Position numbers and translations under genes: made by a program. The notes under the pieces are model-generated. The model was not told the origin of the DNA, ran no database searches, and saw only the letters and a program-made list of their open reading frames with translations. From Candidatus Sericytochromatia bacterium (lineage in GTDB: Bacteria > Cyanobacteriota > Sericytochromatia > S15B-MN24 > UBA4093), in NCBI GenBank assembly GCA_036676985.1, contig JAKFBU010000023.1:261510-325509 (forward strand): a stretch of DNA of 64,000 nt, read 5' to 3'. Shown one piece after another: positions 26,211-59,200 of the stretch (position 1 is its first letter; each line of letters begins with the position of its first letter).

Positions 26211-27035
26211 TCAAGGAAGGGCGATCGCGATGGTGTGGCTCGGTACGACGTCATCCAGGCCGACCTCGAACTCCCAGACGGACGGCTCCGGTGCCTCGCC
26301 CGCGGTGGGTCTGGCCTCCACCACAACGGTGTACCGGCCATCGGCTTGTAGATGCGAGAGCCGTAAGGGCCCCGGAACCTGGTTGGCGGGCACTTCGAAG
26401 GTGGCAACGAGGTGGCCGGTGTCTTGGCCCTCCAGGGCGCGATAGAGGCTGACGACAAGGCTTTCGAGGCGGTCCACGTCGCCGGTGACGGAGAGTTGAA
26501 GGTTGGCGGTTGCCCCGAAGGGCGTGTCCATGATGCGCAAGGGCAGGGGCGACTCGGCGATGGGCCGATCGTCGTCCGTCAGTGTGAGATCGACCGACGA
26601 GGCGTCCGGCTTGGAGATGAGGTGGTAGTCCTTGTCGAAGGCCAGGGCGACGATTCGGTAGCGCCCGTGGACCCGCAGACCGCTGAGCGGAATGGGGCGT
26701 TCGAAGGCCGTTTCGGTCGGATAGCCGTAGGCATTGACGAACTCTCCCCAGCGAGGGTAGCTCTGCCAGTCGTCGACCGGCTCCAGGAGCTTGCCCGTTC
26801 CCAGGGCGATCGGTCGGTAGAGGCCGTCTCCGGGGTCGCGCAAGGGCACGATGACCACAAAGGCGATATCGTCCGCGGTCTTGAGCGGAACGAGCGCTTG
26901 GACGGTCCGCACGAGGTACGGCTTGACCCAGAGGACACGGTCGACCGGGGCGTTGCCGGTCGGCAGCGGGGTCAGGCGCCCCGAACAGGCCGTGAGCACG
27001 AGACAGAGGGCCAAGAGGAGAGCAGGCAATCGCAT
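26211..27035 (-). CDS. Hypothetical lipoprotein, paralogue 3
   Basis: LTAC lipobox; shares DDRP...LRIMDTPF with neighbours. Confidence 0.75.
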   Translation of the reverse strand: MRLPALLLALCLVLTACSGRLTPLPTGNAPVDRVLWVKPYLVRTVQALVPLKTADDIAFVVIVPLRDPGDGLYRPIALGTGKLLEPVDDWQSYPRWGEFVNAYGYPTETAFERPIPLSGLRVHGRYRIVALAFDKDYHLISKPDASSVDLTLTDDDRPIAESPLPLRIMDTPFGATANLQLSVTGDVDRLESLVVSLYRALEGQDTGHLVATFEVPANQVPGPLRLSHLQADGRYTVVVEARPTAGEAPEPSVWEFEVGLDDVVPSHTIAIALP

Positions 27036-27044
27036 GGTTCCCTC

Positions 27045-27623
27045 CTATTCCGTGACCAGCTCGCCCAGTTGCAAGCTCTCGCTGCCGGCCGGCACGACCA
27101 TGCCCGGCTCCAGGCCGAGAGCCGGGACCGTGCCGCGACCATCGAAGGGCACATCCTGCAACCGGATGGAAAGCGTCGCCACGACCGGTCGGTCGTCGGC
27201 CTGGAGGTGAACATCGAGGAAGGAGGCCTCGTCGGCGCTGATGACGTCGGAGGACTCGCTGACATGAGACTTGAAGGCCCTGGCCCGCAGACGATAGGCC
27301 GAATGGGGTGCAAGCCCCGTGAAGGTGAAGGGCTCGGCGAGGGCGTTCCCCGTCAGTACCTGGACGACCGTCCTGCCGTTCACAAGGGCAGGGGCCTCTG
27401 CTCCGGTGCTGGAGAGGGTGAACAAGCGGACCTCGACGGTTACGACGTCCTTCGGCGTCCAGGGCTCGACCAGCGCCTGGGCGCGATAGGTTCCGGACAC
27501 GAACTGGGGCAGCACCTCGAGGCGAGCGGTCCCGGTCGTGAGTTGCAAGGTCCCGAGGGCGGTGCAGCCCCCGATGGCCAGGGAGGCGATCGCCAGTACG
27601 TATCCCAATGACTGCCTACGCAT
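27045..27623 (-). CDS. Hypothetical lipoprotein, paralogue 2
   Basis: GGAGGAGG RBS, ATG 27623, IGGC lipobox; DDRP...IRLQDVPFDG. Confidence 0.75.
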   Translation of the reverse strand: MRRQSLGYVLAIASLAIGGCTALGTLQLTTGTARLEVLPQFVSGTYRAQALVEPWTPKDVVTVEVRLFTLSSTGAEAPALVNGRTVVQVLTGNALAEPFTFTGLAPHSAYRLRARAFKSHVSESSDVISADEASFLDVHLQADDRPVVATLSIRLQDVPFDGRGTVPALGLEPGMVVPAGSESLQLGELVTE

Positions 27624-28647
27624 CGCCGCCCTCCTCCGTGCCGGGAACCGTGAACAGGTCGTACAGGACCGTGCCATTGGCCAGGTGAACTTCTACCTTG
27701 TAGGGCTGACCCGGCGTGAAATCGCCCTCGTCGTAGACGAAGAGGTCGAACTCGACGGTCCCCGCGAACGTTCCGAGGCGCGGGAGAAAGCCGGGGTTCA
27801 CGGCGGCGCCCTGGTGGGAAACGCCCAGGAGGCGGTCATTGGGGAAGCCGACGTACTCCCAGGTGCTCCAATAGCGATCGCCGAGTTGCTCACCATCCTG
27901 GTCCAGGCCGATCAGCGAGATGGAACGGATGACGCTCGGGTCGGGCAGGGTGACGGTGACTCGCAGGCGGGCGTCGGTCAAGCCGTCGGGCTGGGCATGA
28001 CGCTTGCTCATGAGATCGCCCTCCAGGCCGATCCAGGTGATCGGTAGGCTCGCTTGCACCCACTCGGACAGAGGGATCTTAATGTCCTCGATCCCGTCCG
28101 GCACGTAGCCCCCCGGCACGATGTCGAAGCCCGGCAGCGACGTCCGGCCGTCGAACGGGACGTCCAGCAAGCGGATGCTCAGCGGCGCGACGGTGGGGCG
28201 ATCGTCGTCGCCGACCACCACGTCCACCGACGCCTCCTGGCTGATCAGGTGCTGGGGCGACTCGTCCGGATCGTCATAAGCCCAGGCATAGACGCGGTAG
28301 TGGGTCTGGGGATGCAATTGAGAGAGGACGATGGGACGATCGAGCTGCGATCGCTGGATCTCAAGCATGAGCGGCCCATCGGGACCAAGGACGGCGTCCT
28401 CGCGGCCAGGGGATACATAAAAGATCTGGACGCGGACGTGATCCACGGCATCGGCCGTATGGGCCGAAACCACCGTCTGGGTGCGTCGGCTCGCCCCGGC
28501 CCGGACGTCCGGGTGCAGAACGAGCGTCGCCTTGCCGGCGACGGCGGTGGCAGGAGGCCGAACCTCCCAGGGGGGCGCACACCCACCCAGCAGGAGGCTC
28601 CCCATGAGGAACAAGGTCGCGAAGGCCTTGGATACTGGCTGCGTCAC
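27616..28647 (-). CDS. Hypothetical lipoprotein, paralogue 1, with extra C-terminal domain
   Basis: GAGGAG RBS, LGGC lipobox; DDRP...IRLLDVPFDG. Confidence 0.75.
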   Translation of the reverse strand: MTQPVSKAFATLFLMGSLLLGGCAPPWEVRPPATAVAGKATLVLHPDVRAGASRRTQTVVSAHTADAVDHVRVQIFYVSPGREDAVLGPDGPLMLEIQRSQLDRPIVLSQLHPQTHYRVYAWAYDDPDESPQHLISQEASVDVVVGDDDRPTVAPLSIRLLDVPFDGRTSLPGFDIVPGGYVPDGIEDIKIPLSEWVQASLPITWIGLEGDLMSKRHAQPDGLTDARLRVTVTLPDPSVIRSISLIGLDQDGEQLGDRYWSTWEYVGFPNDRLLGVSHQGAAVNPGFLPRLGTFAGTVEFDLFVYDEGDFTPGQPYKVEVHLANGTVLYDLFTVPGTEEGGDA

Positions 28648-28886
28648 GGCAAGGTCTCCTCTTTCAAGCTTTCAACCTTAATACATATAATCCTTTTTAT
28701 GTCATAAGTAAACAAAAGTATACTATCGCCTATCCGCCCTGCTCTCCACCGACCTGCCAACGGGGGAGGCGCTAGGCCGCAAGGCTTTCACGAGAGTTAA
28801 CGAGGGCTTCAACGGTTGTTTACCGGATTCGCGGCCCGACCGGCGATAACCCCCACAGCGTGCCCCATGGAAAGGAGCAGGACCCT

Positions 28887-29774
28887 ATGGCTATCCGGGA
28901 AGCGGGTGCCGGTTCATACGGTTCCTATCAGGCCATCCTGAGCCGGCTGCATCAGCGTGTCGGCGGCGAGACCTCGGCTCCTGCGCCCAGTATCCAGGGC
29001 GATACCTTCGTGCGGGCCGGTGGCGGCAGCTACACGGTTCAATCCGGCGACAGCCTCTCCAAGATCGCCCAGCGCACCCTCGGAAACGGCAACCGCTGGC
29101 ACGAGATCTACGAGCTCAACCGCGACATCATCAGCAACCCGAACCTCATCCAGCCGGGCCAGGTCCTGAAGCTGCCCGGCAGCTCCCGCTCGGCTCAGCC
29201 CGCGGCCCCTGCTCAGCCGGCCGCGCCCAAGACCGGCATGCCGGCGGTGATCCAGCGCTTCCACGACACGGTCGAGCGCTACCGGGCTCACAAGCTCGGC
29301 AAGATCACCCCCGAGCAGCTCCAGGCGCTCGGCGAAGCCAACAAGAAAGCCTTCTTCAACGCTCTGCGCCCCGCGGCCGAAGAGGCCGAGCGCAAGTACG
29401 GCGTGCCGGCCTCCATCACCCTCGCCCAGGCGGCCCTCGAGTCGGGGTGGGGCAAGCACGGTATCGGCGGCTACAACATCTTCGGGATCAAGGGCGAAGG
29501 CCCCGCGGGCAGCGTCACCAAGTCCACCCAGGAATGGGAGAACGGACGCTACATCACGATCCAGGCCAAGTTCGCCCGCTACGAGAACTACACCCAGGCC
29601 ATCATGGAGCACGGCAAGGTCTTCCAGAAGGTCTACTACGAGAAGGCCATGGACCGCTACGAGCAGAACAAGGACCCCAAGGAATTCGCCCGGAACATCA
29701 CGGGTGTCTACGCCACGGATCCCAACTACGGGTCCAAGCTCATCTCTTTGATGGACACCTACAACCTGGCCTAA
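28887..29774 (+). CDS. LysM plus GH73 (FlgJ-like) peptidoglycan hydrolase
   Basis: AAGGAG RBS; YTVQSGDSLSKIA...NLIQPGQVL; AQAALESGWG, NIFGIK, YATDPNY. Confidence 0.92.
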   Translation: MAIREAGAGSYGSYQAILSRLHQRVGGETSAPAPSIQGDTFVRAGGGSYTVQSGDSLSKIAQRTLGNGNRWHEIYELNRDIISNPNLIQPGQVLKLPGSSRSAQPAAPAQPAAPKTGMPAVIQRFHDTVERYRAHKLGKITPEQLQALGEANKKAFFNALRPAAEEAERKYGVPASITLAQAALESGWGKHGIGGYNIFGIKGEGPAGSVTKSTQEWENGRYITIQAKFARYENYTQAIMEHGKVFQKVYYEKAMDRYEQNKDPKEFARNITGVYATDPNYGSKLISLMDTYNLA

Positions 29775-29779
29775 AGCGC

Positions 29780-29806
29780 GACGCCCCCCGGAATCCGGGG
29801 GGCGTC
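29780..29806. terminator. Hairpin between convergent genes
   Basis: GACGCCCCCCGGA-A-TCCGGGGGGCGTC. Confidence 0.65.
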
Positions 29807-29810
29807 ACCC

Positions 29811-30557
29811 TTAGCGGCGCTTTTCGGGCAGGATGGCGTCTCCCAGGAGATGCCGGATGCCCTCCGAGGCCACGAAGAAGCCGAAGGTTCCCGGCATGTA
29901 GCTGATGGTACCGTTGACGGTCTTCTGCGGGCCCGCTCCGGGCACCCACTCGCGCTCGATATGCGGAAGCGTCGGCTCGTCGGAGAAGACGGCCCGGACG
30001 CCTCGCTTGAGGCCGTTCTTGCGGGCCATCTTGCGCAGGGCCGTGGCCAAGGGGCAGCCGTGGGTGTCGAAGAGGTCGGCGACCTTGATGTAGGTCGGGT
30101 TCACCCGCGCGCCGGCGCCCATGCTCGAGACGGCGAAGATCCCGCGCTCCTGGGCGGCCAGCAGGAGGCCCACCTTGGAGCTGAGGGCGTCGATGCAGTC
30201 CAGGACGACGTCCACGTCCTCGGGCAGGTACCGCGCGACGTCCTGGGGGCTCAGGCGCTCGTTGATGAGCTCCAGCTCGATGTCCGGGTTGATGTCCCGC
30301 AGGCGCTCGGCCATGACCTCCACCTTGGGGCGACCGACGGTGGAGGTGAGGGCGACCACCTGGCGGTTGCAGTTCGAGGGGGCCACCACGTCGAAGTCGA
30401 TGAGCGTCAGCTTGCCCACGCCCGCGCGGCCCAGGGCCTCGACGCACGAGCCGCCCACGCCGCCCACGCCGGCCACCAGCACGTGCGACTTCCTCAAGCG
30501 CTCCAGGCCGTTGTCGGCCACCAAGATCCGCGTCCGCTCCGCCAGTTCGATTCGCAT
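29811..30557 (-). CDS. tcdA: tRNA threonylcarbamoyladenosine dehydratase (ThiF family)
   Basis: GVGGVGG, SNCNRQ, SSMGAG, CPLA, GTISYMP. Confidence 0.9.
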   Translation of the reverse strand: MRIELAERTRILVADNGLERLRKSHVLVAGVGGVGGSCVEALGRAGVGKLTLIDFDVVAPSNCNRQVVALTSTVGRPKVEVMAERLRDINPDIELELINERLSPQDVARYLPEDVDVVLDCIDALSSKVGLLLAAQERGIFAVSSMGAGARVNPTYIKVADLFDTHGCPLATALRKMARKNGLKRGVRAVFSDEPTLPHIEREWVPGAGPQKTVNGTISYMPGTFGFFVASEGIRHLLGDAILPEKRR

Positions 30558-30566
30558 GTCTTCCTT

Positions 30567-31316
30567 TTAGTCCTTCAACCGAAACACCGCCCGTCCGTTC
30601 GCGTCGGAACAGGCCAACACCGATGCGGGCTCCTCGCCCCTGAGGCGCGCCACGACTCGGGCGATCGCCTCGATCTCTCGCGGCTCGTTGCGCTCGCCGC
30701 GACGCCACTCGGGCGACAGGTCGGGCGCGTCGGTCTCGAGCACGTAGCCGTCCGCCGGACACCGCGCCACGGCGCCCTGTAGTTTGCGCGCGGTCGGCCA
30801 GGTCGCGATCCCCCCGATCCCGAGCTTGAAGCCCAGGTCCAGGTACCGCCGCGCGAGCTCCCAAGGCCCCGCGAAGGCATGCACGACCCCCGTCAGGCCC
30901 GGCCGCGCCTTCAAGAGCGCGATCAGGTCCTCGTGCGCGTGGACCACGTGCAGGATGACGGGCAGCCCGTACGCCAGGGCGAGATCCAGCTGTGCGGCAC
31001 AGAGGGCCTCCGAGTCCGCGTGGCGACGGCGCTTGTCGAGCCCCGTCTCCCCGATGGCCACGAACTCGCCGCTCGCCACGGCGCGCGCGAGGCGCTCCAG
31101 GGCATCCGGCGGGTGATCGTAGAAAGGGTGCAGGCCCGCCGCACGATGCAGACGCAACCCGTGCGCCGACACCGGAGCTCGCTCGAACCACTCGACGCCC
31201 ACGCCCGGCAGCACGAGCTCGCCGACGCCGGCTTCCAGCGCGCGGGCGGCGACGTCCGCGCGATCGGCGTCGAACTCCGGCGCATCGAAGTGGCAGTGCG
31301 AATCGAGGTGGCCCAT
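30567..31316 (-). CDS. tatD: TatD family DNase
   Basis: DSHCH, GLHP, IGETGLD, ETDAPD, RNEP. Confidence 0.92.
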   Translation of the reverse strand: MGHLDSHCHFDAPEFDADRADVAARALEAGVGELVLPGVGVEWFERAPVSAHGLRLHRAAGLHPFYDHPPDALERLARAVASGEFVAIGETGLDKRRRHADSEALCAAQLDLALAYGLPVILHVVHAHEDLIALLKARPGLTGVVHAFAGPWELARRYLDLGFKLGIGGIATWPTARKLQGAVARCPADGYVLETDAPDLSPEWRRGERNEPREIEAIARVVARLRGEEPASVLACSDANGRAVFRLKD

Positions 31317-31358
31317 GGGGCTTCATCGTACCGAAACCAGGGCGTTTCGTCACGCGCC

Positions 31359-31388
31359 AAACAAACGGCCCCGGCGAGGCCGGGGCCG
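31359..31388 (-). terminator. Intrinsic terminator of the small minus-strand operon
   Basis: CGGCCCCGGC-GAG-GCCGGGGCCG followed by TTTGTTT on the minus strand. Confidence 0.7.
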
Positions 31389-31392
31389 GGGC

Positions 31393-31713
31393 TCAGCCCG
31401 TGCGGGGAACCGGTCGTGCCGGACGCTCCGCCTTGCGATAGTGGGCGCAGATGGGATCGGCGGGCTGCCTAGGCTCGATCGAGCAGGGGAGCACGTGCTT
31501 CACCTGGGCCCGCTTGTGCGGCTGCTGGAAGAAGTGGCAGTCCTTGCAGCACTTGCGCGGCTTGTAGGAGTCACAGGCGCGGTACTGGGGCCGCTGATCC
31601 AGGCATGGCAGGTCGTCCATGCTGCCGTTGGGCATGAGGCCTAGCTCGCCGCGCGGGGACACCACGAGGTACTGGCAGCCGCTACAGGTCTTCTCGCCCT
31701 CGCGGGCGACCAG
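31393..31713 (-). CDS. Small Cys-rich protein with two CxxC...C...C units; start uncertain
   Basis: Frame is open upstream of GTG 31665 and encodes KTCSGCQY; CTG at 31713 taken as tentative start. Confidence 0.6.
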   Translation of the reverse strand: MVAREGEKTCSGCQYLVVSPRGELGLMPNGSMDDLPCLDQRPQYRACDSYKPRKCCKDCHFFQQPHKRAQVKHVLPCSIEPRQPADPICAHYRKAERPARPVPRTG

Positions 31714-31714
31714 G

Positions 31715-31954
31715 TCAAGCCGTAATAGCGACTTTGCCCGGCCTTTTCGACTGTGGCGAGGCCTTCTTCTCCTTTCCCTCCGCCTTGAGGAGATCTACGA
31801 TCTCCTGGGCCTTCTGGGCCACCAGCGACAGATCGGCCCTGGGCGCCTGGGCGGCCAGCTTGCGGATCTTGTCGAGCCGGGGCTTGATCGCCTTGGCCAT
31901 GACCGGGCCGAGATCATGCTCCAGCCCGTCCAACTCTTGCAACAGCTCGTTCAT
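31715..31954 (-). CDS. 79-aa helical hypothetical protein
   Basis: AAGGAGGTG RBS just before ATG; GC-rich third codon positions. Confidence 0.75.
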   Translation of the reverse strand: MNELLQELDGLEHDLGPVMAKAIKPRLDKIRKLAAQAPRADLSLVAQKAQEIVDLLKAEGKEKKASPQSKRPGKVAITA

Positions 31955-31967
31955 GCCTCACCTCCTT

Positions 31968-31979
31968 GAACATATGTTC
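31968..31979. promoter_or_regulatory. LexA (SOS) box, GAAC-N4-GTTC type
   Basis: Perfect palindrome GAACATATGTTC abutting the RBS of the 79-aa gene. Confidence 0.7.
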
Positions 31980-32052
31980 TATACCCGGCAACTCCGGCGT
32001 TAAACGGCGTCCGGTCCCCCTTTCCCGGCTGCTCGTGATACCCTGGTGAGCT

Positions 32053-33210
32053 ATGACGACTACGACCATGTCCGATCCCATCTACCTCGACTACAACGCG
32101 AGCGCCCCCCTGGACCCCGACGTGCTGGAGGCCATGCGGCCGTTCCTGGAGACCGCCTTCGGCAACAGCCGCAGCTCCCACGCCCACGGTCAGCGCCTCA
32201 AGGCCGCCATCGGCCACGCGCGAGAGCAGGTCGCGCACATGCTCGGCTGCGAGCCCGACGAGCTGATCTTCACCTCGGGCGGCAGCGAGGCCAACAACCT
32301 GGCCCTCAAGGGCCTCGCGTGGGCCTACCCGGAGCGGCGCCACCTCGTCGTCTCGAGCATCGAGCACTACTCGGTGGCCTACGCCGCGGACTTCCTCGCG
32401 ACCCAGGGCCGTGAGGTCACGGTGGTGGGCGTCGATCGCCAGGGTCGGGTGGATCCCGACGCGGTGGCAGCGGCCCTCCGGCCGGACACGCTCGTGGTCA
32501 GCATCCAACATGCCAACAACGAGATCGGCACGGTGCAGGACATCCCGGCGATCGCCCGGCGCGCTCGCGCCGCGGGCACGCTCATGCACTGCGACGCCGC
32601 CCAGAGCATCGGCAAGCTGACCGTGCGGGTGACCGACCTGGAGGTCGACCTGCTCACGCTCGCGGGCCACAAGTTCGGCGGACCGCAGGGCATCGGGGCC
32701 CTGTACCGGCGGCGCGGCGTGGAGCTCGTGCCGCTCATCCACGGGGCGGGCCACGAGGATGGGCTGCGCTCGGGCACCCACAGCGCGGCCCTCATCGTCG
32801 GACTCGGCAAGGCTTGCGAGCTGGTCTGCGAGCGCCTCGCGGACGACAGCCGGCGCATGCGGAGCCTGCACGATCGCCTCTACGCCAGGCTAAAGGCTGG
32901 CATCCCGGGTCTCGTCCTGAACGGCGATCCGGAAAACCGCCTTCCCCACACCCTCAACATCTCGTTTCCGGGGATCTTCGGCGGGGACCTCCTGGCCCGC
33001 ACGCCGGAAGTCGCGGCCACCACGGGGGCTGCCTGCCACTCGGGCATCAACGAGCCCTCCTTGACCTTGAAGGCCGTAGGGGCCCCTCGGGACGTGGGCC
33101 TCGGCGCCGTGCGGTTGAGCCTCGGGCGTCGGACCACCGACCATGAGATCGATCGTGCGGCCGACGCGCTGCTCGCCGCCTACCAGACTCTCATGCCGGA
33201 GGCTCGATGA
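32053..33210 (+). CDS. Cysteine desulfurase, IscS/NifS group
   Basis: YLDYNAS, FTSGGSEANN, HANNEIGT, GHKFGGPQG, GAACHSG. Confidence 0.92.
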   Translation: MTTTTMSDPIYLDYNASAPLDPDVLEAMRPFLETAFGNSRSSHAHGQRLKAAIGHAREQVAHMLGCEPDELIFTSGGSEANNLALKGLAWAYPERRHLVVSSIEHYSVAYAADFLATQGREVTVVGVDRQGRVDPDAVAAALRPDTLVVSIQHANNEIGTVQDIPAIARRARAAGTLMHCDAAQSIGKLTVRVTDLEVDLLTLAGHKFGGPQGIGALYRRRGVELVPLIHGAGHEDGLRSGTHSAALIVGLGKACELVCERLADDSRRMRSLHDRLYARLKAGIPGLVLNGDPENRLPHTLNISFPGIFGGDLLARTPEVAATTGAACHSGINEPSLTLKAVGAPRDVGLGAVRLSLGRRTTDHEIDRAADALLAAYQTLMPEAR

Positions 33211-34906: not shown

Positions 34907-34995
34907 CGCTCCTCCTCTGCCGAGGCGAGTCTAGCCCCAACAGGGACCGGGCACAACGCCCCGTCCCTCGCCGGAAAACGGATGTCAGGGGTAGG

Positions 34996-35514: not shown

Positions 35515-35624
35515 GCCCCCATACTAGGCGAACTCCCGCTCGGATGCAAGGTTCTACCCCGATCGGCCTTTCGGCATGGCCGAACTCATGGTGCAATGGA
35601 AGGTCGCGCAGTGAAAGGAGCCCC

Positions 35625-35942: not shown

Positions 35943-36095
35943 GTTTCCAAAAATAATACGCAACTTTAACGCGCAAAGGCCCGATAAGATCCTATGACCT
36001 TAACTCGCGGTTAAGTCCGCACGAGGTCCCGGTAAAAAACGACTCATTGGCACGGGCCAACCAGGGATAACCGAGACTGCTGGAAAGGATCTTCC

Positions 36096-41897: not shown

Positions 41898-44000
41898 TTA
41901 GCTGTCGCTGATGGCCATCAGGAACTCTGCGTTGGATTTGGTGCGACTGAGACGGTCGGCCAGGAACTCCGTGACCTCCGCGGTGTCGCCCGCATCCAGG
42001 GTCTTGCGCAGGATGCGCTGCTTGCGCAGCTCCTCCGGCGTCAAGAGCAGCTCCTCCTTGCGGGTGCTCGACCGCTTGATGTCGATGGCCGGGAAGATCC
42101 GGCGGTCGGCCAGTCGGCGGTCCAGCGTGAGCTCCGAGTTACCGGTGCCCTTGAATTCTTCGTAGATGACCTCGTCCATGCGCGAGCCCGTGTCGATGAG
42201 CGCCGTGGCGATGATCGTCAGGCTGCCCGAGCGCTCCAGCTTGCGGGCCGCGCCGAAGAAGCGCTTGGGCTTGTGCATGGCGTTGGGATCGAGACCGCCC
42301 GACAGGGTGCGGCCCGACGGCGGCATCGCCGAGTTGTAGGCACGCGCCATGCGGGTGATGGAGTCGAGCAGGATGACCACGTCCTTGCCGTGCTCGACCA
42401 TGCGCTTGGCGCGCTCCATGACCAGCTCGGCCACGCGCACGTGGTTCTCGGGCAGCTCGTCGAAGGTCGAGGCGACCACGTCGCCGTTGATGGAACGCTG
42501 CATGTCCGTGACCTCTTCGGGGCGCTCGTCGATGAGCAGCGCGATGAGGTGCACCTCGGGGTGGTTCTCCGAGATCGAGTTGGCGACCTGCTTGAGGAGG
42601 GTCGTCTTACCGGCCTTGGGCGGCGAGACGATGAGGGCGCGCTGACCCTTGCCCAGCGGGTTGAAGAGGTCCATCAAGCGCATGGAGAGGTTGTTGGAGA
42701 CCGTCTCGAGCTTGAGGCGCTCGCAGGGGTAGATGGGCGTCAGGTTCTCGAAGGGGATCCGGTGGACCACCGACTCGAGCGGGAAGCCGTTGATCGTCTC
42801 CACCTTGAGCAGGGCGAAGTACTTTTCGCCTTCCTTGGGGGGACGGACCTGGCCCACGACCTGATCCCCGCTCCAGAGATCGAAGCGCCGGATCTGGGTC
42901 TGCGAGACGTAGATGTCGTCGGGCGAGGGCAAGTAGTCGGCCACCCGCAGGAAGCCGTAGCCCTCGGGCATGATCTCGAGCACGCCCTTGGCGGAGATGA
43001 TCCCGCTGGTGTCGCCCTGGGTCTGCATGATCCGGTGGATCAGCTCCTGGCGGCGCAGGCGGCGGTAGTTGAAGATGTTGAGCTGGCGCGCGAGCTCGTA
43101 GAGATCGGGGATGTCCATGTTGGGGAGCTGGGTGACATCCACCTCGACGGTGGGCGCCGCACCCGGCTCGATCCCCTGCTCGGCGAGGAGGGCCTCGGCG
43201 AGCTCCCGGGCCTCGCGCATCTCGCGCATCTCACGCTCGGTGGCGCGGTTGCCGCGGTTGTCCTCGCGGAAGGTGACCGGCCCCCGACGCTGGTCGCGAT
43301 CGCGGCGATCCCGATCGCGCCCCTGCTGCTGGCGCTGGTCACGGTCGCGATGGCGCTGCCCCTGACCCTGACCTTGACCCTGCTGGAACGGCTGCTGGCG
43401 ATCGTGGCGATCCCGCTGCTGGCGATCCCCCCGCTCGTGACGCTCGTGTCGGTCGTGGCGCTGCTCGCGGGGTTCGCGCTGTTCCCGGGGCTCCCGCTGC
43501 TCGCGAGGTTCGCGCTGCTCCCGCTGTTCACGGGGCTCGCGCTGTTCCCGGGGCTCGCGCTGTTCCCGGGGCTCCCGTTGCTCACGGGGTTCGCGATGCT
43601 CGCGGGGTTCCCGCTGCTCGCGCTGCTCCCGACCGGGACGGCCCTCGCGGGGCGCGCGGGTCGGCTGCTCAACCGGGGCCTCGACGGTGGTGACGGCCGG
43701 CGGGGCGACCTCGACCTCGGGAGCGGCGGCGGGCTCGGCGGCAGCGGCGCGACTCCGGCGGGACTGCGTGGATCGGGTGCGAACCGGGGCAGCGGGCGTT
43801 TCGGCCTCGACGGAAGCGGCGACGGGCGGAGCCTCAGTGGCGACGGCTCCCTCGGCCTGGTTGGCGGCTGCGCGGGCCTGGGCGGCACGGGTCGGACGAC
43901 GGCGCGACGTCACAGGAGCTTCGGTGGTGTCTGGGCCCGCCGGCACATCCGTCGCCACGGCGGAATCGGGAGCGTTCACGCGCTTAGCCGAGGTTTCCAA
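41898..44000 (-). CDS. rho: Transcription termination factor Rho with long low-complexity N-terminus
   Basis: [39 protein letters not shown]; TTG start uncertain. Confidence 0.96.
43459..43630 (-). repeat. Degenerate 18-bp tandem repeat encoding (REPREQ)n in rho
   Basis: About nine to ten imperfect units visible in DNA and protein. Confidence 0.85.
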
Positions 44001-44427: not shown

Positions 44428-45246
44428 ATGCTTAAGCGTTTCGATGCACGCCTTTTGACGATGGGCGCCCTGGTTCCGATGATGATGGCGGGTTGCTCCA
44501 CGACGGCGCCGACGAGCGCGCCCGACACCCCCCAGGCCCAGCCGGCCCCGGCCACTCAGGTCGCCCTGACGGCTCAGGCGAGCGCGGCCAAGTACAGCAT
44601 CCAGGGTGGCCAAGATCTGGGCGGCGCTTACATGAATTATGCGGCCAACCCCTGTGGTGAGTGCCCGGCGGCCGTTCCGGCGCTGGCCGCGGGCATCCTC
44701 GTGAGCCCGTTCGCGCTGTGGACGTTCGACTACCTGTCGAGCCATCCGCTTCTGGACTACAGCTGGTACTACGCCCGCGGCAACTTCGCGGTCTTCGGAT
44801 GGGCCAACGACTACTATGCCCACCTCGCCGACTTCATGTGGTATCCCACGGCCGCCGGCTACTGGCCGTACGCCTACAACGCGGGTGTTGCCGCCTATAC
44901 TCCCTACGTGGGTTACGCCGGTGGAGCCCCGATCTATCCGTACCTCGGCTACGGGCTCGATCCCTACGTCGGGCTCGAGGTCGGCGCCGGTCTCGCCGCC
45001 CCGGTGATGAGCCTCGGCACCATCCCGGTCCCGGCCGTCGGCGGCTACGGCGGCTATGACGGTAAGAAGGGCGACGTCGGCGCCTACAGTGGCGGCAAGG
45101 GCGACGTCGGCGCCTACAGTGGCGGAAAGGGCGCTCCCGCTCAGACCTACAGCGCCCCCAAGAAGGACCGCGGCGGCAACGGCGGCCAGGCTTACAGCCG
45201 CAACGGCGGCCAGGCCATGCAGCAGGGTCAGCGCTCCGGTTACTAA
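44428..45246 (+). CDS. Tyr/Gly-rich lipoprotein
   Basis: AGGAGG RBS, MAGC lipobox, about 10% Tyr, GGYGGY. Confidence 0.8.
   Translation: MLKRFDARLLTMGALVPMMMAGCSTTAPTSAPDTPQAQPAPATQVALTAQASAAKYSIQGGQDLGGAYMNYAANPCGECPAAVPALAAGILVSPFALWTFDYLSSHPLLDYSWYYARGNFAVFGWANDYYAHLADFMWYPTAAGYWPYAYNAGVAAYTPYVGYAGGAPIYPYLGYGLDPYVGLEVGAGLAAPVMSLGTIPVPAVGGYGGYDGKKGDVGAYSGGKGDVGAYSGGKGAPAQTYSAPKKDRGGNGGQAYSRNGGQAMQQGQRSGY
45067..45133 (+). repeat. 30-bp tandem duplication (KGDVGAYSGG x2)
   Basis: AAGGGCGACGTCGGCGCCTACAGTGGCGG at 45067 and 45097. Confidence 0.9.
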
Positions 45247-47765: not shown

Positions 47766-48842
47766 ATGGTCTCCGTCGCGTGTCGCGTGCCAGCCATGCT
47801 GGCCCTCTGCATGGGCCTGACCGGCTGTGCCCAGCCCCTGGCGGGCCCCCTGCCGGGCGGGGCCACCTTCGCGATCCAGGCGGAGTACGTGGTCCAGGCC
47901 GAGGAGGACGAACCCACCTGGAACCTCCAGCGGATCGGCGTCTACCCCTCGGCCGTGCGCCCCATGCCGGGCGCCAACCTGGTGGTGGCGGCGGTGGTCG
48001 ACACGGGCGCGGACCCCCAGCATCCGACCCTTCAGCCGCGCCTCTTGCCCATGATCGACCTGGTCGGCGGCGACACCTTCAACCGCAACGGCCAGGCCTA
48101 CGAGTTCCGCGGGCGCGACGGCAACGGCCACGGCACGCACGTGGCGGGCATCGTCAAGGCGACGGTGGGCGAGAACAACCCGATCGACATCCTGTCCGTC
48201 AAGGCCATCGGCCACACGGGGGTGGGCGACGACGGCACCATCGCCGAGGGGATCCGCCGAGCGGTCGACTGGCGCGACCCTGCGAACCCCGACCGGCGGG
48301 TGCGGGTCATCAACCTCTCGGTTGGCGGCAAGACGAGCTCCAAGGTCCTCGAGGACGCCCTCGCCTACGCCGTCAGCCGCGACGTGCTCATGGTCGTGGC
48401 GGCGGGCAACCGCGAGCGCGACGTGGACTACCCCGCGGCCCTGCCCACCGCTCTGGCCGTCTCGGCGACCACCCGCCAGGACGGCCTTGCGAGCTACTCC
48501 AACCGCGGGACCACGGTGGGCATCTCGGCACCCGGAGGCGACTCGGACGGGGCCATCGTCTCGGCCTGGCCGACCTACCTCACGGCCTCGGACCTCAAGA
48601 AGGGCCTGACGACGCCGCACACGGACGGCTCCATGGTGGGCACGTCCATGGCCGCCCCGCACATCACGGGTGCTGCCGCCCTCCTCTTCGCTCAGGACCC
48701 GAGCCTCACGGCCCTCCAGGTGCGGGCGCGCCTCCAGACCTGGACAGCGGACCTGGGGCCGGTGGGACCGGACGGGTACTTCGGCGTCGGCCGGCTCATG
48801 GTGGAGGCGGTGCTCGCCAAAGGAGCGCACGATGCGCGCTAG
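47766..48842 (+). CDS. S8 subtilase lipoprotein with very short pro-region
   Basis: AAGGAG RBS, ATG 47766, LTGC lipobox; VVDTG, HGTHVAG, GTSMAAPH. Confidence 0.9.
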   Translation: MVSVACRVPAMLALCMGLTGCAQPLAGPLPGGATFAIQAEYVVQAEEDEPTWNLQRIGVYPSAVRPMPGANLVVAAVVDTGADPQHPTLQPRLLPMIDLVGGDTFNRNGQAYEFRGRDGNGHGTHVAGIVKATVGENNPIDILSVKAIGHTGVGDDGTIAEGIRRAVDWRDPANPDRRVRVINLSVGGKTSSKVLEDALAYAVSRDVLMVVAAGNRERDVDYPAALPTALAVSATTRQDGLASYSNRGTTVGISAPGGDSDGAIVSAWPTYLTASDLKKGLTTPHTDGSMVGTSMAAPHITGAAALLFAQDPSLTALQVRARLQTWTADLGPVGPDGYFGVGRLMVEAVLAKGAHDAR

Positions 48843-49758: not shown

Positions 49759-49913
49759 CGCGAGGCCCGACGCGGCTCCACGCCCGCTCTCGGCCCGCGC
49801 CGCGCCAGGGCTCGGCGCATAGACGGGGATGACGTTCCCTGTTATGCTTAACCTCGCGTAACCAGCGCGGTTATGCCGAGATCCGTGGAGCGCAGGACGA
49901 CGAAGGCCGCTAC

Positions 49914-51755: not shown

Positions 51756-51935
51756 AGCGTCTGACGAACCGGTTCCGGCAAGCCGTCGGAAGGCGGCCCG
51801 CGGCGCCCCATGCCGGGTTTGGTCCGCTGCTCTAAGGCTCACTCGATCGGTACCCCCGGCCCGTTTCGGGGTATAAACTGCCTCCTGGGGTCGTGCGCCG
51901 CGATGAGGAGGCGGGACCCCGAGAGAGGAGCTCGC

Positions 51936-52511: not shown

Positions 52512-52534
52512 GCCCCGCCCGAAAAACCCCACCC

Positions 52535-52572
52535 CGCGCCAGCCCCCGGCCCATGGGCCGGGGGCTGGCGCG
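52535..52572. terminator. Perfect 38-bp palindrome after HAD gene
   Basis: CGCGCCAGCCCCCGGCCCA/TGGGCCGGGGGCTGGCGCG. Confidence 0.6.
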
Positions 52573-52761
52573 CTCCGGAGCCGTGAGCGCACCGTCAGCG
52601 ATCGGTGAACGACCCGTGAGGCTTGCGAAATAGGCGGACCGTCCGCCCTTGCAATCGATTGCTTGGCGAAGCGGACGGGTATGTGATCAGCGTCTGTCCC
52701 CCGTAATCCGGTTCGCCTCCCGGGTGCTTTTCTGGTCTTAGCACCTAGCAAGGAGTTGGTC

Positions 52762-55700
52762 GTGAGCTTGGGTCATGCGCGTCGGCTGATCGCCTGTATC
52801 GCCATCAGCCTGCTCCTTTGCCTGATCACGGCATGCCCCCGTTCTCTGGTCTCGACGCCCGTCGGCTTGACGGCCGCCCAGGCGGATCCCGGCACGCTGC
52901 ATGGCTTCGTGGACTTCGACGACCGCCGCCAGGTGCAGGCCTCGTTGGAGTCCGTCGCCAAGGGAGCCACCGTCGCCCTGATCCGTGTGAGCAACGGCGA
53001 GACGGTCGCCACGACCCTCACCGACGCCCGCGGCGGCTTCAGCATGCGGATCACCAACGGCTACAAGCCCATCAACAACGAACTCTACTACATCGAGGCG
53101 CTCAAGGGCCTCTCCCTCGGCGACGGCTCCGCCAACGCGGTGGGCGGGAGCCTCGCTCGCGTGCGCACCATCGCCCTCTACAAGGACAACAACTGGTCGA
53201 CCCTGGCCGGGACGACCGGGGCCGTCATTCTGAACCAGACGACCACGGCGATCGCCATCGTCGTCAGCCTGCGGAGCGTCCCGGGCTTCGGGCCCGCGAT
53301 CGATCCCATGCAGCTGCTCTCGACGGTGACGCTGAGCCAGCCGCAGGGCGGGTACCCGGATACTATCACCCTGCCCGAGGCCTTCACCATGGGGGCCCAC
53401 CCCATCTTGCCCCTGAGCCTCATCCAGCGGACGATCGATCTGGTCGCCGACGCCCTGAGCAAGAACCGGGATCCGCTCCGCTGGATCGCCCTGGCGAGCT
53501 CGGACCCGGACCACAACACGGTCGCCCTGCCGGACGCGCCCTTCGCGATCGCGGGCCTCTCCCCGAACTCCGCGGCCCCGGGCGACTCGATCGTCCTGGT
53601 CGGCAGCAACTTCGGCGACACGCCCGAGGCCAACCAGGTCACGTTCACCGCGCCCTCGGGCGCGACCGTCTCGGCCACGGTCGCCGCCGTGAGCCCCGAC
53701 ATGTCCCAGCTGACGCTGGTGGTGCCGCCGACGGCCGTCACGGGCCCCCTCACCCTGACGCTCAAGGGCAAGACGCTGCCCGGGCCCATGTTCAACCTGG
53801 CCGTCCGCTCGGGTCACGGGACGGTGGACGTCTCGGGCAACGTCTACATCGCGAACAAGGGCATGGGCACCGTCTCCATCACCCAGACCATCCCGGGCAG
53901 CACCCGCCTGGGCGTCAAGGCGCTGGTGTCCAACCTCGACAACCCGAGTGCCCTGACGTTCGGAAAGAGCGGCTACCCCGAGCTCTACGTGGCCTGCGGC
54001 GGGACGACCAAGAAGATCTTCAAGATCGACGTCTCGGGCCCCACCCCGACGGCCGTGGCCTCGTCGAGCGTGGCGCCCTTCGCGAGCCCGAGCGGCATCG
54101 CCTACCAGTTCTCGAGCGGCGACTACTTCATCGCCGACGCGTCGCAGAACCTTCTCTACAAGATGGCCGCCGGCGGCCCGACCCCCGCCGTCACGGCCTT
54201 TCCCGTCAGCGGCGTGACGCTCAGCCAGCCGCGCGGCCTGAGCTTCGGACCGGACGGCAAGCTTTACGTCGCCAACACCGGCGCGAACAACGTGCTCGCC
54301 ATCGACGTCACGACCGGCGCCGGCTCGGAGTTCCTCTCGGGCCTGGCCTCGCCCTACGGCGTGGCGTTCGACAACCTGGGCAGCTTCTACGTCAGCAACA
54401 ACTCCGGCAACTCGGTCTACACCAAGCCGGTCGTCTCGGCCCCCGGCGTCACGCCCAAGGTCTACGGCAGCCTGACGGCCTTCGCGAGCATCCCGACGCC
54501 CGGCGCCATCACGGCCGACTCGAGCGGCTACCTCTACGTCGCGGACACCGTCTCCAACGGCATCTACCGCATCAACCAGAACGCCGAGAGCTACCAGGTC
54601 GCCTACGGCCTCAGCTACCCGAACGCCGTCTGGTCGGACGCGAGCGGCCACTACATCATGACCGACGCGGGGCGCATCCTCTACTACGACCCGGTCAAGC
54701 AGATCCTCTCGGTCTTCGCCGAGGGCCTCTACTCGGCCAAGGGGCTGGTCCGCGACGGCGACGGAAACTTCTACACCAACCAGAGCAGCATCGCGTCCCT
54801 GGTCAAGATCGCCCCCAACGGGACGACCTCGCAGCTCCTGTCGGGCCTGACCTCGTGCACCAACAGCGGAGTGCGCCTCAACGGCCGCAAGCTGTACCTG
54901 CGCTCCAGCGTGAGCGTCGAGTCCGCCCAGTACACGAGCCAGGGCGAGGTCCTGGAGTACGACCTCGACAACCTCGGCTCCACGCCCAACGCCCGCTACA
55001 AGAGCCACGCCAAGACGACGGTGGCGATCGCCCGGGACGAGTCCGGCGGCGTCTACAACAACTACTACTACGGCGTCCAGACCGGCGACGCCTCGCCCTC
55101 GATCGTGCGCATCAACCGGCTTGCCACCCAGTATGCCGAGTACACGCTCGTGACCCGGGACACCTCGGGCCGCCTGAAGGATCCGCGCGACATCTGGGTC
55201 GACCCGAACGGCCGGATCTGGGTCGCGGACTTCCAGGGGCAGAGCGGCAGCGGCGGACTCTACGTCTACAACGCGGACGGCACCCCCTATGCCGACTACA
55301 GCAGCAGCGTGGTCAAGCCGACCAACCTCACCTCCGACGGGACGCTCGTCTACGTCAACAACTACCAGACCGCAGGCGACGTGCGCGCGCTGGATCGGAA
55401 TACCGGAGCCGTCGTCCGCATCCTGACCGGCTACAAGAACCCCCGGGGCATCGCCTTCAACACAGGCACCCACACCATGTACGTCGACGAGGGCGGCAAC
55501 AAGCGCATCCTCGCGGTGGCCACCTACGACTCCGCGCCGGGGGCCTCGCCCTCCTTCTATGCGGCCAACGGCAACTACAACGACATCGAGACCGTCGGCA
55601 CGACGATCGTGTTCACCAACGGCGGCCTCATCTCGCGGATCGCCGCCGACGGCCAGACGGTCACGAACCTCAAGACCCACTACGACTCCCAGCTTCGGAT

Positions 55701-56235
55701 CTTCAAGAACTCGGACGGGAAGTACGTCTGGACCGACGGGTGGGGCAACCTGCATCACAGCGACATGGGCGACTACACCACCTGGGGCGGCCCGCTCCGG
55801 ACGGAGAACGGCCGGGGCGTCTTCGGCGTTCGCGGGGACAGCACCAAGTCCGGCAGTTCCGTCTTCACCTTCGGGCGCGCCTCCTGGACCGCCCTGATCA
55901 CCGAGATGGCCGCCGACGGGAGCTACACCCGGACGTGCTACTGGGCCACGGGTCCGGACGATACCAAGGAGTACAACAGTGTCGCGGACGACGGAGCCGG
56001 CACGCTCTTCCTCGGCATCGCCACCAACGGCCTGGTCGTCAAGTACTCGAACGGGACGTTCACCACGCTGGGGAGCGCCCCGAGCAGCAGCGGCCCGGAC
56101 ACCGCCACCGGCCTGACCTACTACAACGGTCAGGTCTACCAGGTGCTCCGGACGTTGCACCGGCTGGATCAGATCGATCCGACCACCGGGACCCGGACCT
56201 CGCTCAAGATCGGCCTCATGGCCCCGGAACTGTAG
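52762..56235 (+). CDS. Large lipoprotein: N-terminal domain, IPT/TIG domain, NHL-like propeller repeats
   Basis: AGGAG RBS before GTG 52762; ITAC lipobox; GDSIVLVGSNFG; many LxxPxGxAxDxxGxxYV repeats. Confidence 0.85.
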   Translation: MSLGHARRLIACIAISLLLCLITACPRSLVSTPVGLTAAQADPGTLHGFVDFDDRRQVQASLESVAKGATVALIRVSNGETVATTLTDARGGFSMRITNGYKPINNELYYIEALKGLSLGDGSANAVGGSLARVRTIALYKDNNWSTLAGTTGAVILNQTTTAIAIVVSLRSVPGFGPAIDPMQLLSTVTLSQPQGGYPDTITLPEAFTMGAHPILPLSLIQRTIDLVADALSKNRDPLRWIALASSDPDHNTVALPDAPFAIAGLSPNSAAPGDSIVLVGSNFGDTPEANQVTFTAPSGATVSATVAAVSPDMSQLTLVVPPTAVTGPLTLTLKGKTLPGPMFNLAVRSGHGTVDVSGNVYIANKGMGTVSITQTIPGSTRLGVKALVSNLDNPSALTFGKSGYPELYVACGGTTKKIFKIDVSGPTPTAVASSSVAPFASPSGIAYQFSSGDYFIADASQNLLYKMAAGGPTPAVTAFPVSGVTLSQPRGLSFGPDGKLYVANTGANNVLAIDVTTGAGSEFLSGLASPYGVAFDNLGSFYVSNNSGNSVYTKPVVSAPGVTPKVYGSLTAFASIPTPGAITADSSGYLYVADTVSNGIYRINQNAESYQVAYGLSYPNAVWSDASGHYIMTDAGRILYYDPVKQILSVFAEGLYSAKGLVRDGDGNFYTNQSSIASLVKIAPNGTTSQLLSGLTSCTNSGVRLNGRKLYLRSSVSVESAQYTSQGEVLEYDLDNLGSTPNARYKSHAKTTVAIARDESGGVYNNYYYGVQTGDASPSIVRINRLATQYAEYTLVTRDTSGRLKDPRDIWVDPNGRIWVADFQGQSGSGGLYVYNADGTPYADYSSSVVKPTNLTSDGTLVYVNNYQTAGDVRALDRNTGAVVRILTGYKNPRGIAFNTGTHTMYVDEGGNKRILAVATYDSAPGASPSFYAANGNYNDIETVGTTIVFTNGGLISRIAADGQTVTNLKTHYDSQLRIFKNSDGKYVWTDGWGNLHHSDMGDYTTWGGPLRTENGRGVFGVRGDSTKSGSSVFTFGRASWTALITEMAADGSYTRTCYWATGPDDTKEYNSVADDGAGTLFLGIATNGLVVKYSNGTFTTLGSAPSSSGPDTATGLTYYNGQVYQVLRTLHRLDQIDPTTGTRTSLKIGLMAPEL

Positions 56236-56247
56236 GCGGAGCGGACC

Positions 56248-59200
56248 ATGCTGAAAGTCGTCTTCCTGCTCTTCACTCTCCTCTTGACCAGCTGCCGCAT
56301 GCCGGGGCTGGTCGGCCCCATGTCGCCCGTCCGCGGGATCCAGGCGCCGGCAGGCCAGGTCGTCGCCCAGCCCCTGAGCGGCACCGTCGAGTGGCCCGCC
56401 GAGCGAGGGGTCCAGGCCGCGATCGCCGACGTCGCGAGCGCCTCGGTCGTCTCGATCATCGATGCGGCCACCGGCGTGAGCGTCGGGGCCAGCGTGTCGG
56501 ATGCGAGCGGGGGCTTCGCGATCCGGTTCGGCCCCCTCTTTCGCCCGACGGTCAACCAGGCGTTCATCGCCGAGGCCGTGAAGGGGCTGCGGTCGCCGGG
56601 TGCCGGCCCCGACGGCCAGTTCAACCAGGCCGGGGCCGAGGCCGTGCGCCTCCGGACCATCGTCTACTACGACGGCGGGTCCGGAGGCTGGAAGGGCCTC
56701 ACCTCCGGGACCCCCGGCACCGTTCACATCGGCCAGAAGACCACGGCCCTCTCGGTGGGCATCGCCCTGAGGCAAGCGGCCGGGCTGCCCCTGGTGCTGA
56801 CGGACTACATCAACGCCATCCCGGGCAACGGCACCTACGTGCCGCCCAGCGGCGGGATCGACACTCCGGAATTCGACTCCCTGACGACGCTGGTCGGCGA
56901 CGCCCTCGCCCAGGACCGCGATCCGGTCCACTACGTGTCGCTGGACACCTCCTCGGGGCGCTTCGCCTCGACCTTCGTCGGCTTCGCCATCACGGACGTG
57001 CAGCCGCGCACGGGCACGATCGAAACGCCCTTGACCATCACGGGCACCGGCTTCGACACGGGCACCATCACGGTGGCCATCAACGGAGTGCCGGCCACCA
57101 TCACCTCGTTCACGGCCGACACCATCCAGGCCAAGGTAGGCCCGGGCAGCCGCACGGGGCCGGTCACCGTGACGGTGGGCGGCGCCTTGCAAGCAGGGCC
57201 CACCTTCACCGTCAACGTCTCGGACGGCCACAACGTCTTCCTGAACGGCTCCATGTACGTGGTCAACCCCGCCTGGGGCACCCTGAGCCGGATCGATGCG
57301 GCGGGCTACGTCAAGACGGTGGGCAACGGGATCAACTCGCCCCAGCAGGTCGCCGTGGGACCGGACGGCCTCGTCTACGTCTCGGGCCAAGGGGACAACA
57401 AGGTCTGGCGGTTCGACCCGGCCAGCGGCTTCGCCTCGAGCAGCTTCGCCGTCGTCACGGCACCCAACGGGCTTGCTTTCGATACCAGCGGCAACCTCTT
57501 CGTGTCGAGCAACCAAGGCGCCGGCAACGTCTACAAGCTGAATGCCGGCGGCACGGTCGTGAACACCTACCCGGGCTTCACCAACCCGCAGAGCCTCGCG
57601 TTGGACTACGCCGGAAAGCTCATCGTCGTCGAGGCGGGCGGTGCTGTCACCAAGATCACGCCCGACGACCCCGCGGGCAACCCGCGGACGCCCCTGGCCT
57701 TCTTGCCGACACCCAGCGGGCTCGCCGTCGACTCGGCGGGCAACGCCTTCGTCACGTGCACCAGCAGCAACTGCATCTCCCGGGTGGACCCGCTCGGCAA
57801 CACGTCGGTCTTCGCCGTGGTGACGAGCCCGGGCGGGATCGCGTTCGACTCCTCCGGGGCGCTCTTCACGTCCGACACCACCAACAACCTCATCTATCGC
57901 ATCTCGCCCTCCGGAAACCTCTCGACCTTCGCCTATGGCATCAGCACCCCCCGCGGGCTGGCGGTGAACCCCAGCACGGGCGTGGTGTACGTGTCACTGT
58001 ACAACTCCAACGCTATCCTGCAGGTGAACCCCGCGGACGGCGTGCTCAAACCCCTCGTCAAGGGGATCGCTCCACCGCTCACGCTGACCTACCGGGACGG
58101 GGGGCTGTTCATCGCCCACCCGGACACCAACGCCGTCTCCTTCGCCGATCCCAGCGGCCAGATGACCACGGTCGGCACCAACCTGACGCAGCCGAGCGGC
58201 GCCGACAAGGATCCGGTCTCGGGCAAGGTCTACGTGGGACGCTACGGCATCCCCTGGTTCAGCTGGGCCTACACCTCGGGCTGGACGGACGGCGGCTACC
58301 ACGTCCTCGACGGAGGATCGGTGACGACGGCCTATCCCAACCAGCGCAAGGATTCCGCCGGCCTCACGGTGGATGGCAACGGCGTGGTCTTCTCGGTCAG
58401 CTCCAGTGGACGGCAGCTCAGCATGAGCACTCCGATCGGCCCGGGCTCCTACCAGACGCGCCTCCTCCATACGTTCGCCACCAATCCGAACAAGCTGGCG
58501 CTCGACGCGGCCAACAACCTCTACGCGTCCGTCGGCTCCGAGCACAAGGTGTATCGCTTCCGGGTCGCCGCCAACTACGCCAAAGAGGAGATCACGGGCT
58601 TCAGCAATCCCTACGGGCTGGCCTTCGACGGCAGCGGCACCCTGTGGGTCTCCAACATGAGCGACGGCAAGCTCCGGAAGGTCACCAACCCGGAGCTTGC
58701 AACCACCGTGACGGCGGATGCCTGGCTGTCCGCCGTGGTGGGGACCGGCGTCAGGGGCCTCGCGGTCTCGGGCGGCGACCTCTTCATGGCCAACGGGACC
58801 AACCTGGACTGGTACACCATGGCGGCCGGGACCTCCAGCAACTTCGTCTCCGGGCTGGCCGGCAGCATCTCGGACATCTGGGGACGGCCCGGGGAGATCT
58901 ACGCCCAGTCGGGCTCCACGATCTTCAAGATCGATCAAGCCTCGCGCGTCGCCTCGTACTTCCTGTCCGGGGACGGGCGTCTCATCCGGATCGCCTTCGA
59001 CCCCGCCGGCAAGCTCTATCGCGCCTTCTCGAGCAGCGGGAACATCATCTCGACGGCCACGTCGCCCCAGGTCAACCTGGTGCGGCTCGGCTACACGCAC
59101 GAGATGGGCCTGGACGGTGACCAGCTCTACTTCACCACCACCTACAACACCGACGGGGTCAGCGGATGTGCCGGGATTTACCGCTTCGACCTCACGTCCG

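Follow-up and report, generated by a model that had tools for sequence, protein, structure and literature searches.

A five-residue motif behind the lipobox as the probable signature of an uncatalogued N-terminal beta-sandwich module in predicted lipoproteins of a Sericytochromatia lineage

Why should several predicted lipoproteins of one bacterium carry nearly the same five residues at a short distance behind the cysteine of their lipid anchor? The question is raised by a stretch of 64,000 nucleotides from Candidatus Sericytochromatia bacterium (assembly GCA_036676985.1, contig JAKFBU010000023.1), here called the window. It corresponds to G000:C23:261510-325509, where G000 is the source genome, and has a G+C content of 67%. 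A first-pass annotation of this DNA had listed seven such strings in lipobox-bearing open reading frames, and all seven were located, with 14 to 37 residues between the cysteine and the first motif residue. It had assigned them to at least four dissimilar families; five of the seven are now known to fall into two paralogous families that have one module in common. The motif, [RY]-x-[TV]-Q-A, is probably the signature of an uncatalogued N-terminal beta-sandwich module of predicted lipoproteins and would lie in the loop between its strands A and B. The confidence expressed here covers the identity of the module and the placement of the loop together.

Genes were predicted on the whole 4.68-Mb genome with a crude codon-usage caller of our own, which gave 3721 genes. 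A PROSITE-like lipobox rule then selected 457 predicted lipoproteins genome-wide, 13 of them inside the window; the rule probably over-predicts, and the figure of 457 is probably too high. The motif was counted in a loose form, [RYF]xxQ[ATG], and a strict form, [RY]x[TVIA]Q[AT], within the zone from +5 to +50 after the cysteine. The over-representation in lipoprotein N-termini that the first-pass annotation had proposed to check against shuffled and control sets was indeed observed. The loose form is present in 67 of 448 predicted lipoproteins, as against 25.9 +/- 4.6 after shuffling (maximum 40 in 500 shuffles). Its rate per position is 0.0037 in the lipoprotein N-termini, as against 0.0012 outside that zone in these proteins and 0.0013 in non-lipoproteins. 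The strict form gave 54 matches in 19141 N-terminal positions (0.0028 per position, as against 0.00016 and 0.00022 elsewhere) and is thus 13-17 times denser there. The excess over the shuffles and the higher density in lipoprotein N-termini together establish that the signal is real.

A degenerate five-residue pattern that is noticed post hoc can also be a product of chance. This pattern was defined after the fact, and composition alone yields 0.0014 matches per position, equal to about 6% of segments of 46 residues. One window site, that of the 44428 gene, resembles such a case. Against this stand the shuffle counts, the 13-17-fold enrichment of the strict form and the retention of the motif in orthologs as well as in 56-67 of 75 distant representatives. 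For the module sites chance is already refuted; as an account of the motif its probability is close to nil, and it stands for the 44428 site only.

Further, the enrichment proved to be tied to the module. When each BLAST cluster is represented by one randomly chosen member, the excess of the loose form shrinks to 18.7 as against 12.5 +/- 3.3. When the 76 module proteins are removed, it is found in 18 of 380 lipoproteins (20.7 +/- 4.5 after shuffling), which is no enrichment at all. The narrower form [RYF].[TVIA]QA still occurs 8 times after this removal, as against 3.0 +/- 1.7, and 10 of 1000 shuffles reach 8; at least two of these eight proteins are module-like and were overlooked by the profile. 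Since the enrichment of the loose form vanishes along with the module proteins, the motif is a module signature and not a tag on unrelated families. By the same counts, no enrichment irrespective of the following domain, as a free-standing signal would show, was found.

The layout of these proteins is regular. The lipobox cysteine is followed by a Pro/Ala/Thr-rich linker, an alternating beta-strand A, the motif loop, strand B and the remainder of the sandwich, which is of about 100 residues. A hidden Markov model (HMM) of the segment detected 71 proteins of this genome at an independent E-value (i-E) below 0.01, and 73-76 after iteration. This amounts to about 2% of the genes and to about one in six predicted lipoproteins. 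Each protein has one copy, which is N-terminal in all but one case (residues 150-181). The lipobox rule is satisfied by 68 of 73 module proteins, while the other five have a lipobox further upstream or are truncated at a contig end. The motif begins 22-66 residues behind the cysteine in module lipoproteins (median 33) and is always accompanied by strands A and B. Over 73 sequences, the columns read R41/Y27/F3, x, T32/V23, Q67 and A56. In an alignment of 25 modules, with identities of 13-29% to the first sequence, the Gln is the sole invariant column. The domains that follow are varied: TIG with NHL propellers, Kelch, F5/8 type C, Big_2 or none. The recurrence of the motif in the window is therefore due to paralogy and module shuffling rather than to a tag added to unrelated proteins.

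Gene by gene, the seven window sites (Table 1) agree with this picture in five cases. The 26211, 27045 and 27616 genes form one family and the 52756 and 56248 genes another, and one N-terminal module is common to all five. The first three are joined into one cluster, together with G000:C43:8165-8941, by the C-terminal part of the 26211 protein, and no Pfam match was obtained for any of the three window genes. The segment HMM missed the 26211 protein; its membership of the module family thus rests on paralogy. The true start of the 27045 gene is likely to be an internal Met, 18 codons downstream of the printed one. The 52756 and 56248 proteins have a module of subfamily S1, the transthyretin/CarboxypepD_reg-like type, and the latter has an additional loose match, RGIQA, within its linker (residues 29-33).

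The two other sites are of a different kind. The 47760 subtilase is not an instance of the module, as it has no segment HMM match. It carries a second string, YVVQA, at residues 43-47, and among ten fetched orthologs [YF/L]xIQA is retained in seven, with looser Q-containing variants in two more. The 44428 protein has homologs in none of 20 relatives at E <= 1e-5 and has no Pfam match; the flanking strand pattern is absent, and its YSIQG is probably a chance match. This orphan is rich in Tyr, Gly and Ala and has an internal GKKGDVGAYSGG-type repeat close to its C-terminus.

Table 1. Coordinates of the motif-bearing genes, their motifs and related features (window positions, unless a contig is named; offset, residues from the lipobox cysteine to the first motif residue)
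Feature	Position	Strand	Details
Predicted lipoprotein, family A, 274 aa	26211..27035	-	Cys17, codon 26985-26987
Motif RTVQA, 26211 gene	26895-26909	-	residues 43-47; offset 26
Predicted lipoprotein, family A	27045..27677	-	Cys38 as printed; segment HMM i-E 3.2e-4 (training sequence)
Motif YRAQA, 27045 gene	27474-27488	-	residues 64-68; offset 26
Predicted lipoprotein, family A, 343 aa	27616..28647	-	Cys23; segment HMM i-E 1.8e-4 (training sequence)
Motif RRTQT, 27616 gene	28474-28488	-	residues 54-58; offset 31
Predicted lipoprotein, 1159 aa: S1 module, TIG, NHL propellers	52756..56235	+	Cys27; HMM 7.6e-10
Motif RQVQA, 52756 gene	52927-52941	+	residues 58-62; offset 31
Predicted lipoprotein, 1079 aa: S1 module, TIG, NHL propellers	56248..59487	+	Cys16; HMM 6.2e-8
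Motif RGVQA, 56248 gene	56404-56418	+	residues 53-57; offset 37
S8 subtilase, predicted to be lipidated, 360 aa	47760..48842	+	Cys23; Peptidase_S8 7e-45
Motif FAIQA, 47760 subtilase	47868-47882	+	residues 37-41; offset 14
Orphan Tyr/Gly-rich predicted lipoprotein, 272 aa	44428..45246	+	weak HMM match 1.6e-3 although a training sequence
Motif YSIQG, 44428 gene	44593-44607	+	residues 56-60; offset 33
Second lipobox-bearing S8 subtilase	13982-15163	-	
TTVAPL-repeat examples, outside the window	G000:C23:2566-4137, C23:7943-9580, C59:30658-32232, C38:173582-174733, C41:20267-21322, C77:3-869, others		

The module belongs to no family of Pfam or NCBIfam, and the ESM Atlas holds no named family for it. 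The literature on lipoprotein sorting signals and on Sericytochromatia lipoproteins gave no description of it, in a search that did not include the sequence pattern itself. The nearest known domains are CarboxypepD_reg (PF13620) with its transthyretin-like relatives and the fn3/Ig-like domains, with which the module has a predicted beta-sandwich in common. Matches below the Pfam threshold were observed in three of 25 modules for CarboxypepD_reg (best E 0.0016) and in two of 25 for fn3. The gathering cut-off of PF13620 (32.3 bits) was reached by none of the 25, and the whole 52756 and 56248 proteins have no CarboxypepD_reg match. One motif-bearing lipoprotein matched DUF4382. Unlike generic sandwich repeats, the module has an invariant [RY]x[TV]QA in its A-B connection and a fixed position behind the lipobox.

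Two structure models were made with AlphaFold2. The first is of a stand-alone module of 139 residues (G000:C39:108424-108843), whose family keeps the Gln in 14 of 15 orthologs and the dipeptide 'IP' in 15 of 15. From an alignment of 15 rows, it was modelled as a beta-sandwich with a mean predicted local distance difference test (pLDDT) of 70. A strand at residues 30-37 is followed by a loop at 38-50, which holds RAVQAIP and falls below a pLDDT of 50 at 42-44, and by a strand at 51-60. Similarly, residues 1-251 of the 56248 protein (20 rows, mean pLDDT 82) have a strand at 43-47, in a block of pLDDT 93, then V55-Q56-A57 below 50 and a strand at 67-72. In both models the motif is thus predicted to sit in an exposed loop between confident strands. 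A check of this kind had been proposed by the first-pass annotation, and the low-confidence loop found in both models supports the placement it had asked about. Fold searches with Foldseek returned generic Ig/fn3 and transthyretin-like sandwiches, the best at E 3.4e-4 (template modelling score, TM, 0.41) and E 1.1e-2 (TM 0.24). The stand-alone family, made up of this gene and 14 metagenome homologs, also has an invariant C-terminal G-x-F-x-L-x-L-E, which is modelled at low confidence.

What the loop does is a further question. The module would form a membrane-proximal pedestal of cell-envelope lipoproteins, and its A-B loop, predicted to be exposed and the best-conserved part of the module, would be a candidate docking site. 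On a tentative reading, the loop may be read in trans by a common partner in trafficking or anchoring, without any cleavage. A wider version is more doubtful: that the trans-read loop marks some 75 lipoproteins per genome for surface export or anchoring, or for maturation at Q|A, in a diderm lineage without LolA. The alternative is a purely structural role, in which the turn or an A' strand that joins the two sheets owes its stability to the Gln, the Ala and the aromatic or Arg residue, for example as a Gln-capped turn, and no partner reads the motif. This also is possible but rather unlikely in our estimate.

Several observations bear on both proposals. The motif is the sole invariant column across the subfamilies, yet it has the lowest confidence within the folded part in both models, which suits a partner site better than a structural one. 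When the 85 residues behind the motif were compared with hhalign, subfamilies S3-S6 were mutually linked (up to 93.6%) and S2 weakly so (<=33%). S1, which includes the 52756 and 56248 proteins, was linked to no other subfamily (<=13%), in small alignments that give this comparison little power. As far as it goes, this sequence comparison suggests that the strand-plus-motif element is common to two sandwich classes without detectable downstream homology, while generic Ig/fn3 repeats are without the motif. Furthermore, the module is almost never found away from a lipid anchor: 72 of 73 modules stand directly behind a lipobox, though sandwich domains usually occur internally too. These points favour reading in trans and speak against a structural role. 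That role, in turn, draws on the constant flanking by strands A and B, on the lack of enrichment outside the module, on the detectable homology of S3-S6 past the motif and on the weak fn3 and CarboxypepD_reg matches, which suit an ordinary sandwich.

A number of findings weigh against the proposed reading of the module and its loop, and chiefly against its role in trans. In subfamily S1 many further columns are as invariant as the Gln. In a relative, P0126, a second copy of the module lies internally and still carries RSTQA, a hint that the motif serves the fold whether or not a lipid anchor is near. No enrichment of the loose form remains after the module proteins are removed, and no co-distributed partner of the module was found. 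Next to module genes lie generic genes (for kinases, TPR proteins, two-component systems and ABC transporters) or genes of other lipoproteins. As for the module itself, the counts hinge on our own gene caller and lipobox rule. Because motif-bearing sequences served to train the segment HMMs, the HMM counts of the module are not independent of the motif. The placement of the loop comes from two models with shallow alignments (15 and 20 rows), judged by DSSP and pLDDT, and the low pLDDT may reflect these shallow alignments rather than flexibility.

Another proposal is proteolytic maturation. According to it, a protease of the lineage, possibly a lipidated S8 subtilase, cuts the loop, for instance between Q and A with R/Y/F at P4, and either the lipidated strand A stays held non-covalently or the ectodomain is released. 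At P4, subtilases prefer residues that are aromatic or basic. By analogy with the recognition sites of subtilases, kexin and S1P, the [R/Y/F] at -3 from the Q would equal P4 if the cut were at Q|A. The predicted position of the motif in a low-confidence loop in both models would suit cleavage, as would the 19 S8 matches in G000 and the two copies in the window that are predicted to be lipidated. A papain-like lipoprotein (G000:C44:23-943) has FEIQA directly ahead of residue 79, which Pfam aligns to position 1 of Peptidase_C1 and at which the mature enzyme would be expected to start, and the [YF/L]xIQA behind the lipobox is retained in seven of the ten fetched orthologs of the 47760 subtilase. 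These two cases stand outside the module, where the motif is near chance (8 as against 3.0, with at least two of the eight module-like). Moreover, cleavage within a folded sandwich would not be enough to free the protein. Subtilases are expanded throughout the class, each of the 41 genomes searched having 4-30 S8 matches, and no subtilase shares the distribution of the module. The 47760 subtilase was rejected as a co-distributed partner, because full-length orthologs are present in family f3, where the module is rare. The proposal that the subtilases of the window act as processing enzymes, made in the first-pass annotation, thus found no support in the distribution, and cleavage is on the whole unlikely.

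The type V pilins of Bacteroidota had also been invoked. These arise from a lipoprotein precursor, which Rgp cleaves at a later stage (PMC5954841). FimA and Mfa1 resemble the module proteins in being made as lipoprotein precursors, in having a conserved Arg after an N-terminal strand, and in their beta-sandwich body. A pilin-like scheme would have cleavage at the conserved R/Q, departure of the N-terminal strand and filling of the groove by the C-terminal strand of the next subunit, so that a polymer is formed. The invariant C-terminal pattern of the stand-alone family goes in this direction, as do weak structural matches to FimA, to Mfa2 and to 'cell adhesion' proteins of Bacteroides. These matches are at the level of generic sandwiches: FimA (6jzk_A) was at rank 32 with E 1.5e-2 and TM 0.41, and Mfa2 (5nfi) at rank 1 with E 1.1e-2 and TM 0.24. 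No pilin family of Pfam was matched at E <= 1 by the window proteins, 20 further module proteins or the 25 modules. Most module proteins end in large propeller or enzyme-like parts that are varied, unlike pilins, and have no common C-terminal strand. A module is a single sandwich, whereas type V pilins consist of two, and the lineage is not Bacteroidota. When the part of the stand-alone module behind the motif (residues 46-139) was predicted as a complex of two copies, in runs made without controls, the scores were 0.01 and 0.04 (mark 0.42), which carry no weight for or against the scheme. A relation to type V pilins is not borne out, and a pilin-like mechanism is highly improbable.

A third known system, the lipoprotein export signal (LES) of Bacteroidota surface lipoproteins, is a short motif of the mature N-terminus, acidic and placed at +2 to +5 after the cysteine. 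The two are alike in that many lipoproteins of a single lineage carry such a motif in their mature N-terminal part. The motif described here differs in standing 22-66 residues past the cysteine, inside a folded module, and in having another composition.

How far is the module distributed? In a library of 1.84 billion proteins, the module profile gave 463 matches at E <= 1e-3. From the best 150 of these, 75 single-stretch N-terminal matches were picked as distant representatives; a lipobox is present in 65 of them, the loose motif in 67 and the strict one in 56. The remainder of the best 150 are mostly giant Ig/fn3 repeat proteins, aligned only to the back half of the profile. The strict motif has 6 occurrences over the 112,550 residues of 68 such multi-stretch giants.

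A profile of 46 columns of the motif and module was then run on 101 genomes of the phylum. All 13 genomes of f1, f2 and f4, three families that belong to one order and include G000, gave 6-46 matches each, while family f3 gave a match in one genome of five. The sister family f5 had 1-2 weak matches in six of 12 genomes and f6 had none in five, and the rest of the phylum gave one marginal match in 64 genomes. YKTQA and FSTQ[AV]IP are retained in sequences fetched from f3 and the sister order, so the module predates its expansion. The first-pass annotation had spoken of a lineage-wide signal in dissimilar families. The restriction to a lineage and to the N-termini of lipoproteins holds good, while the picture of dissimilar families gives way to one module spread by paralogy. 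The feature is thus real, strongly conserved and restricted to a lineage; it had been correctly spotted and over-read.

The host would belong to a non-photosynthetic class of Cyanobacteriota. Photo_RC was found in 20 of 61 genomes of the phylum sample and in none of 21 in the class of the window, and none was found in G000. The sole named relative in the searches, the metagenome-assembled record L031, is titled Stenomitos sp., after a photosynthetic cyanobacterial genus, and has 77% identity to the C-terminal part of the 56248 protein. Since none of the 21 class genomes has Photo_RC, the contig of this record may be mis-binned or mislabelled.

The envelope machinery of G000 includes Lgt (PF01790, one match) and LspA (PF01252, two matches), both over the cut-off, and seven matches of the Omp85 family, while no LolA was found. 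The organism is a diderm without an obvious route of lipoprotein trafficking. Module genes tend to lie together, with 41 of 76 adjoining another module gene, and no linkage of the Omp85-family genes to them was found. One gene (G000:C26:17133-19994) encodes an unusual fusion of 953 residues, in which Peptidase_MA_2, a PD40 propeller and an Omp85 barrel are combined. It lies directly upstream of an LspA paralog (G000:C26:20147-20734). As a reader of the motif this protein was rejected: homologs occur across the class, in 34 of 41 genomes, and none was found in the module-bearing genera g7 and g3.

The residue directly after the cysteine also has its own profile in module lipoproteins (Q13, A8, T7, L6, H6, R6 and P5 among 71), with Gly outside the top seven, whereas Gly is found in 118 of 386 other predicted lipoproteins. 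This contrast could reflect either family history or a difference in sorting. In nine predicted lipoproteins a tandem hexapeptide, TTVAPL, occurs in 1-6 copies and is usually followed by Y/W-R-T.. or ..RRVQAT; in three of them, to judge by the pattern of the sequence, the repeats apparently fall within a CarboxypepD_reg-like domain. TTVAPL may constitute a variable linker, one that carries a motif-like sequence with it. Elsewhere in the window, Rho (41898-44000, minus strand) has an N-terminal extension of about 290 residues ahead of its Rho_N domain, and a scan of the window with Rfam gave no match.

For the biology of this lineage, the finding bears on the sorting of lipoproteins in diderms that have no Lol chaperone. 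The module provides a defined new domain family for the databases and accounts for a good part of the 'hypothetical lipoproteins' in these genomes assembled from metagenomes. Its stand-alone form, with 139 residues and a single invariant Gln, offers a testable handle. If the loop is indeed read in trans, it would represent a code for lipoprotein sorting or processing unlike both the Lol +2 rule and the export signal of Bacteroidota, because it would be embedded in a folded pedestal domain and not in the tether.

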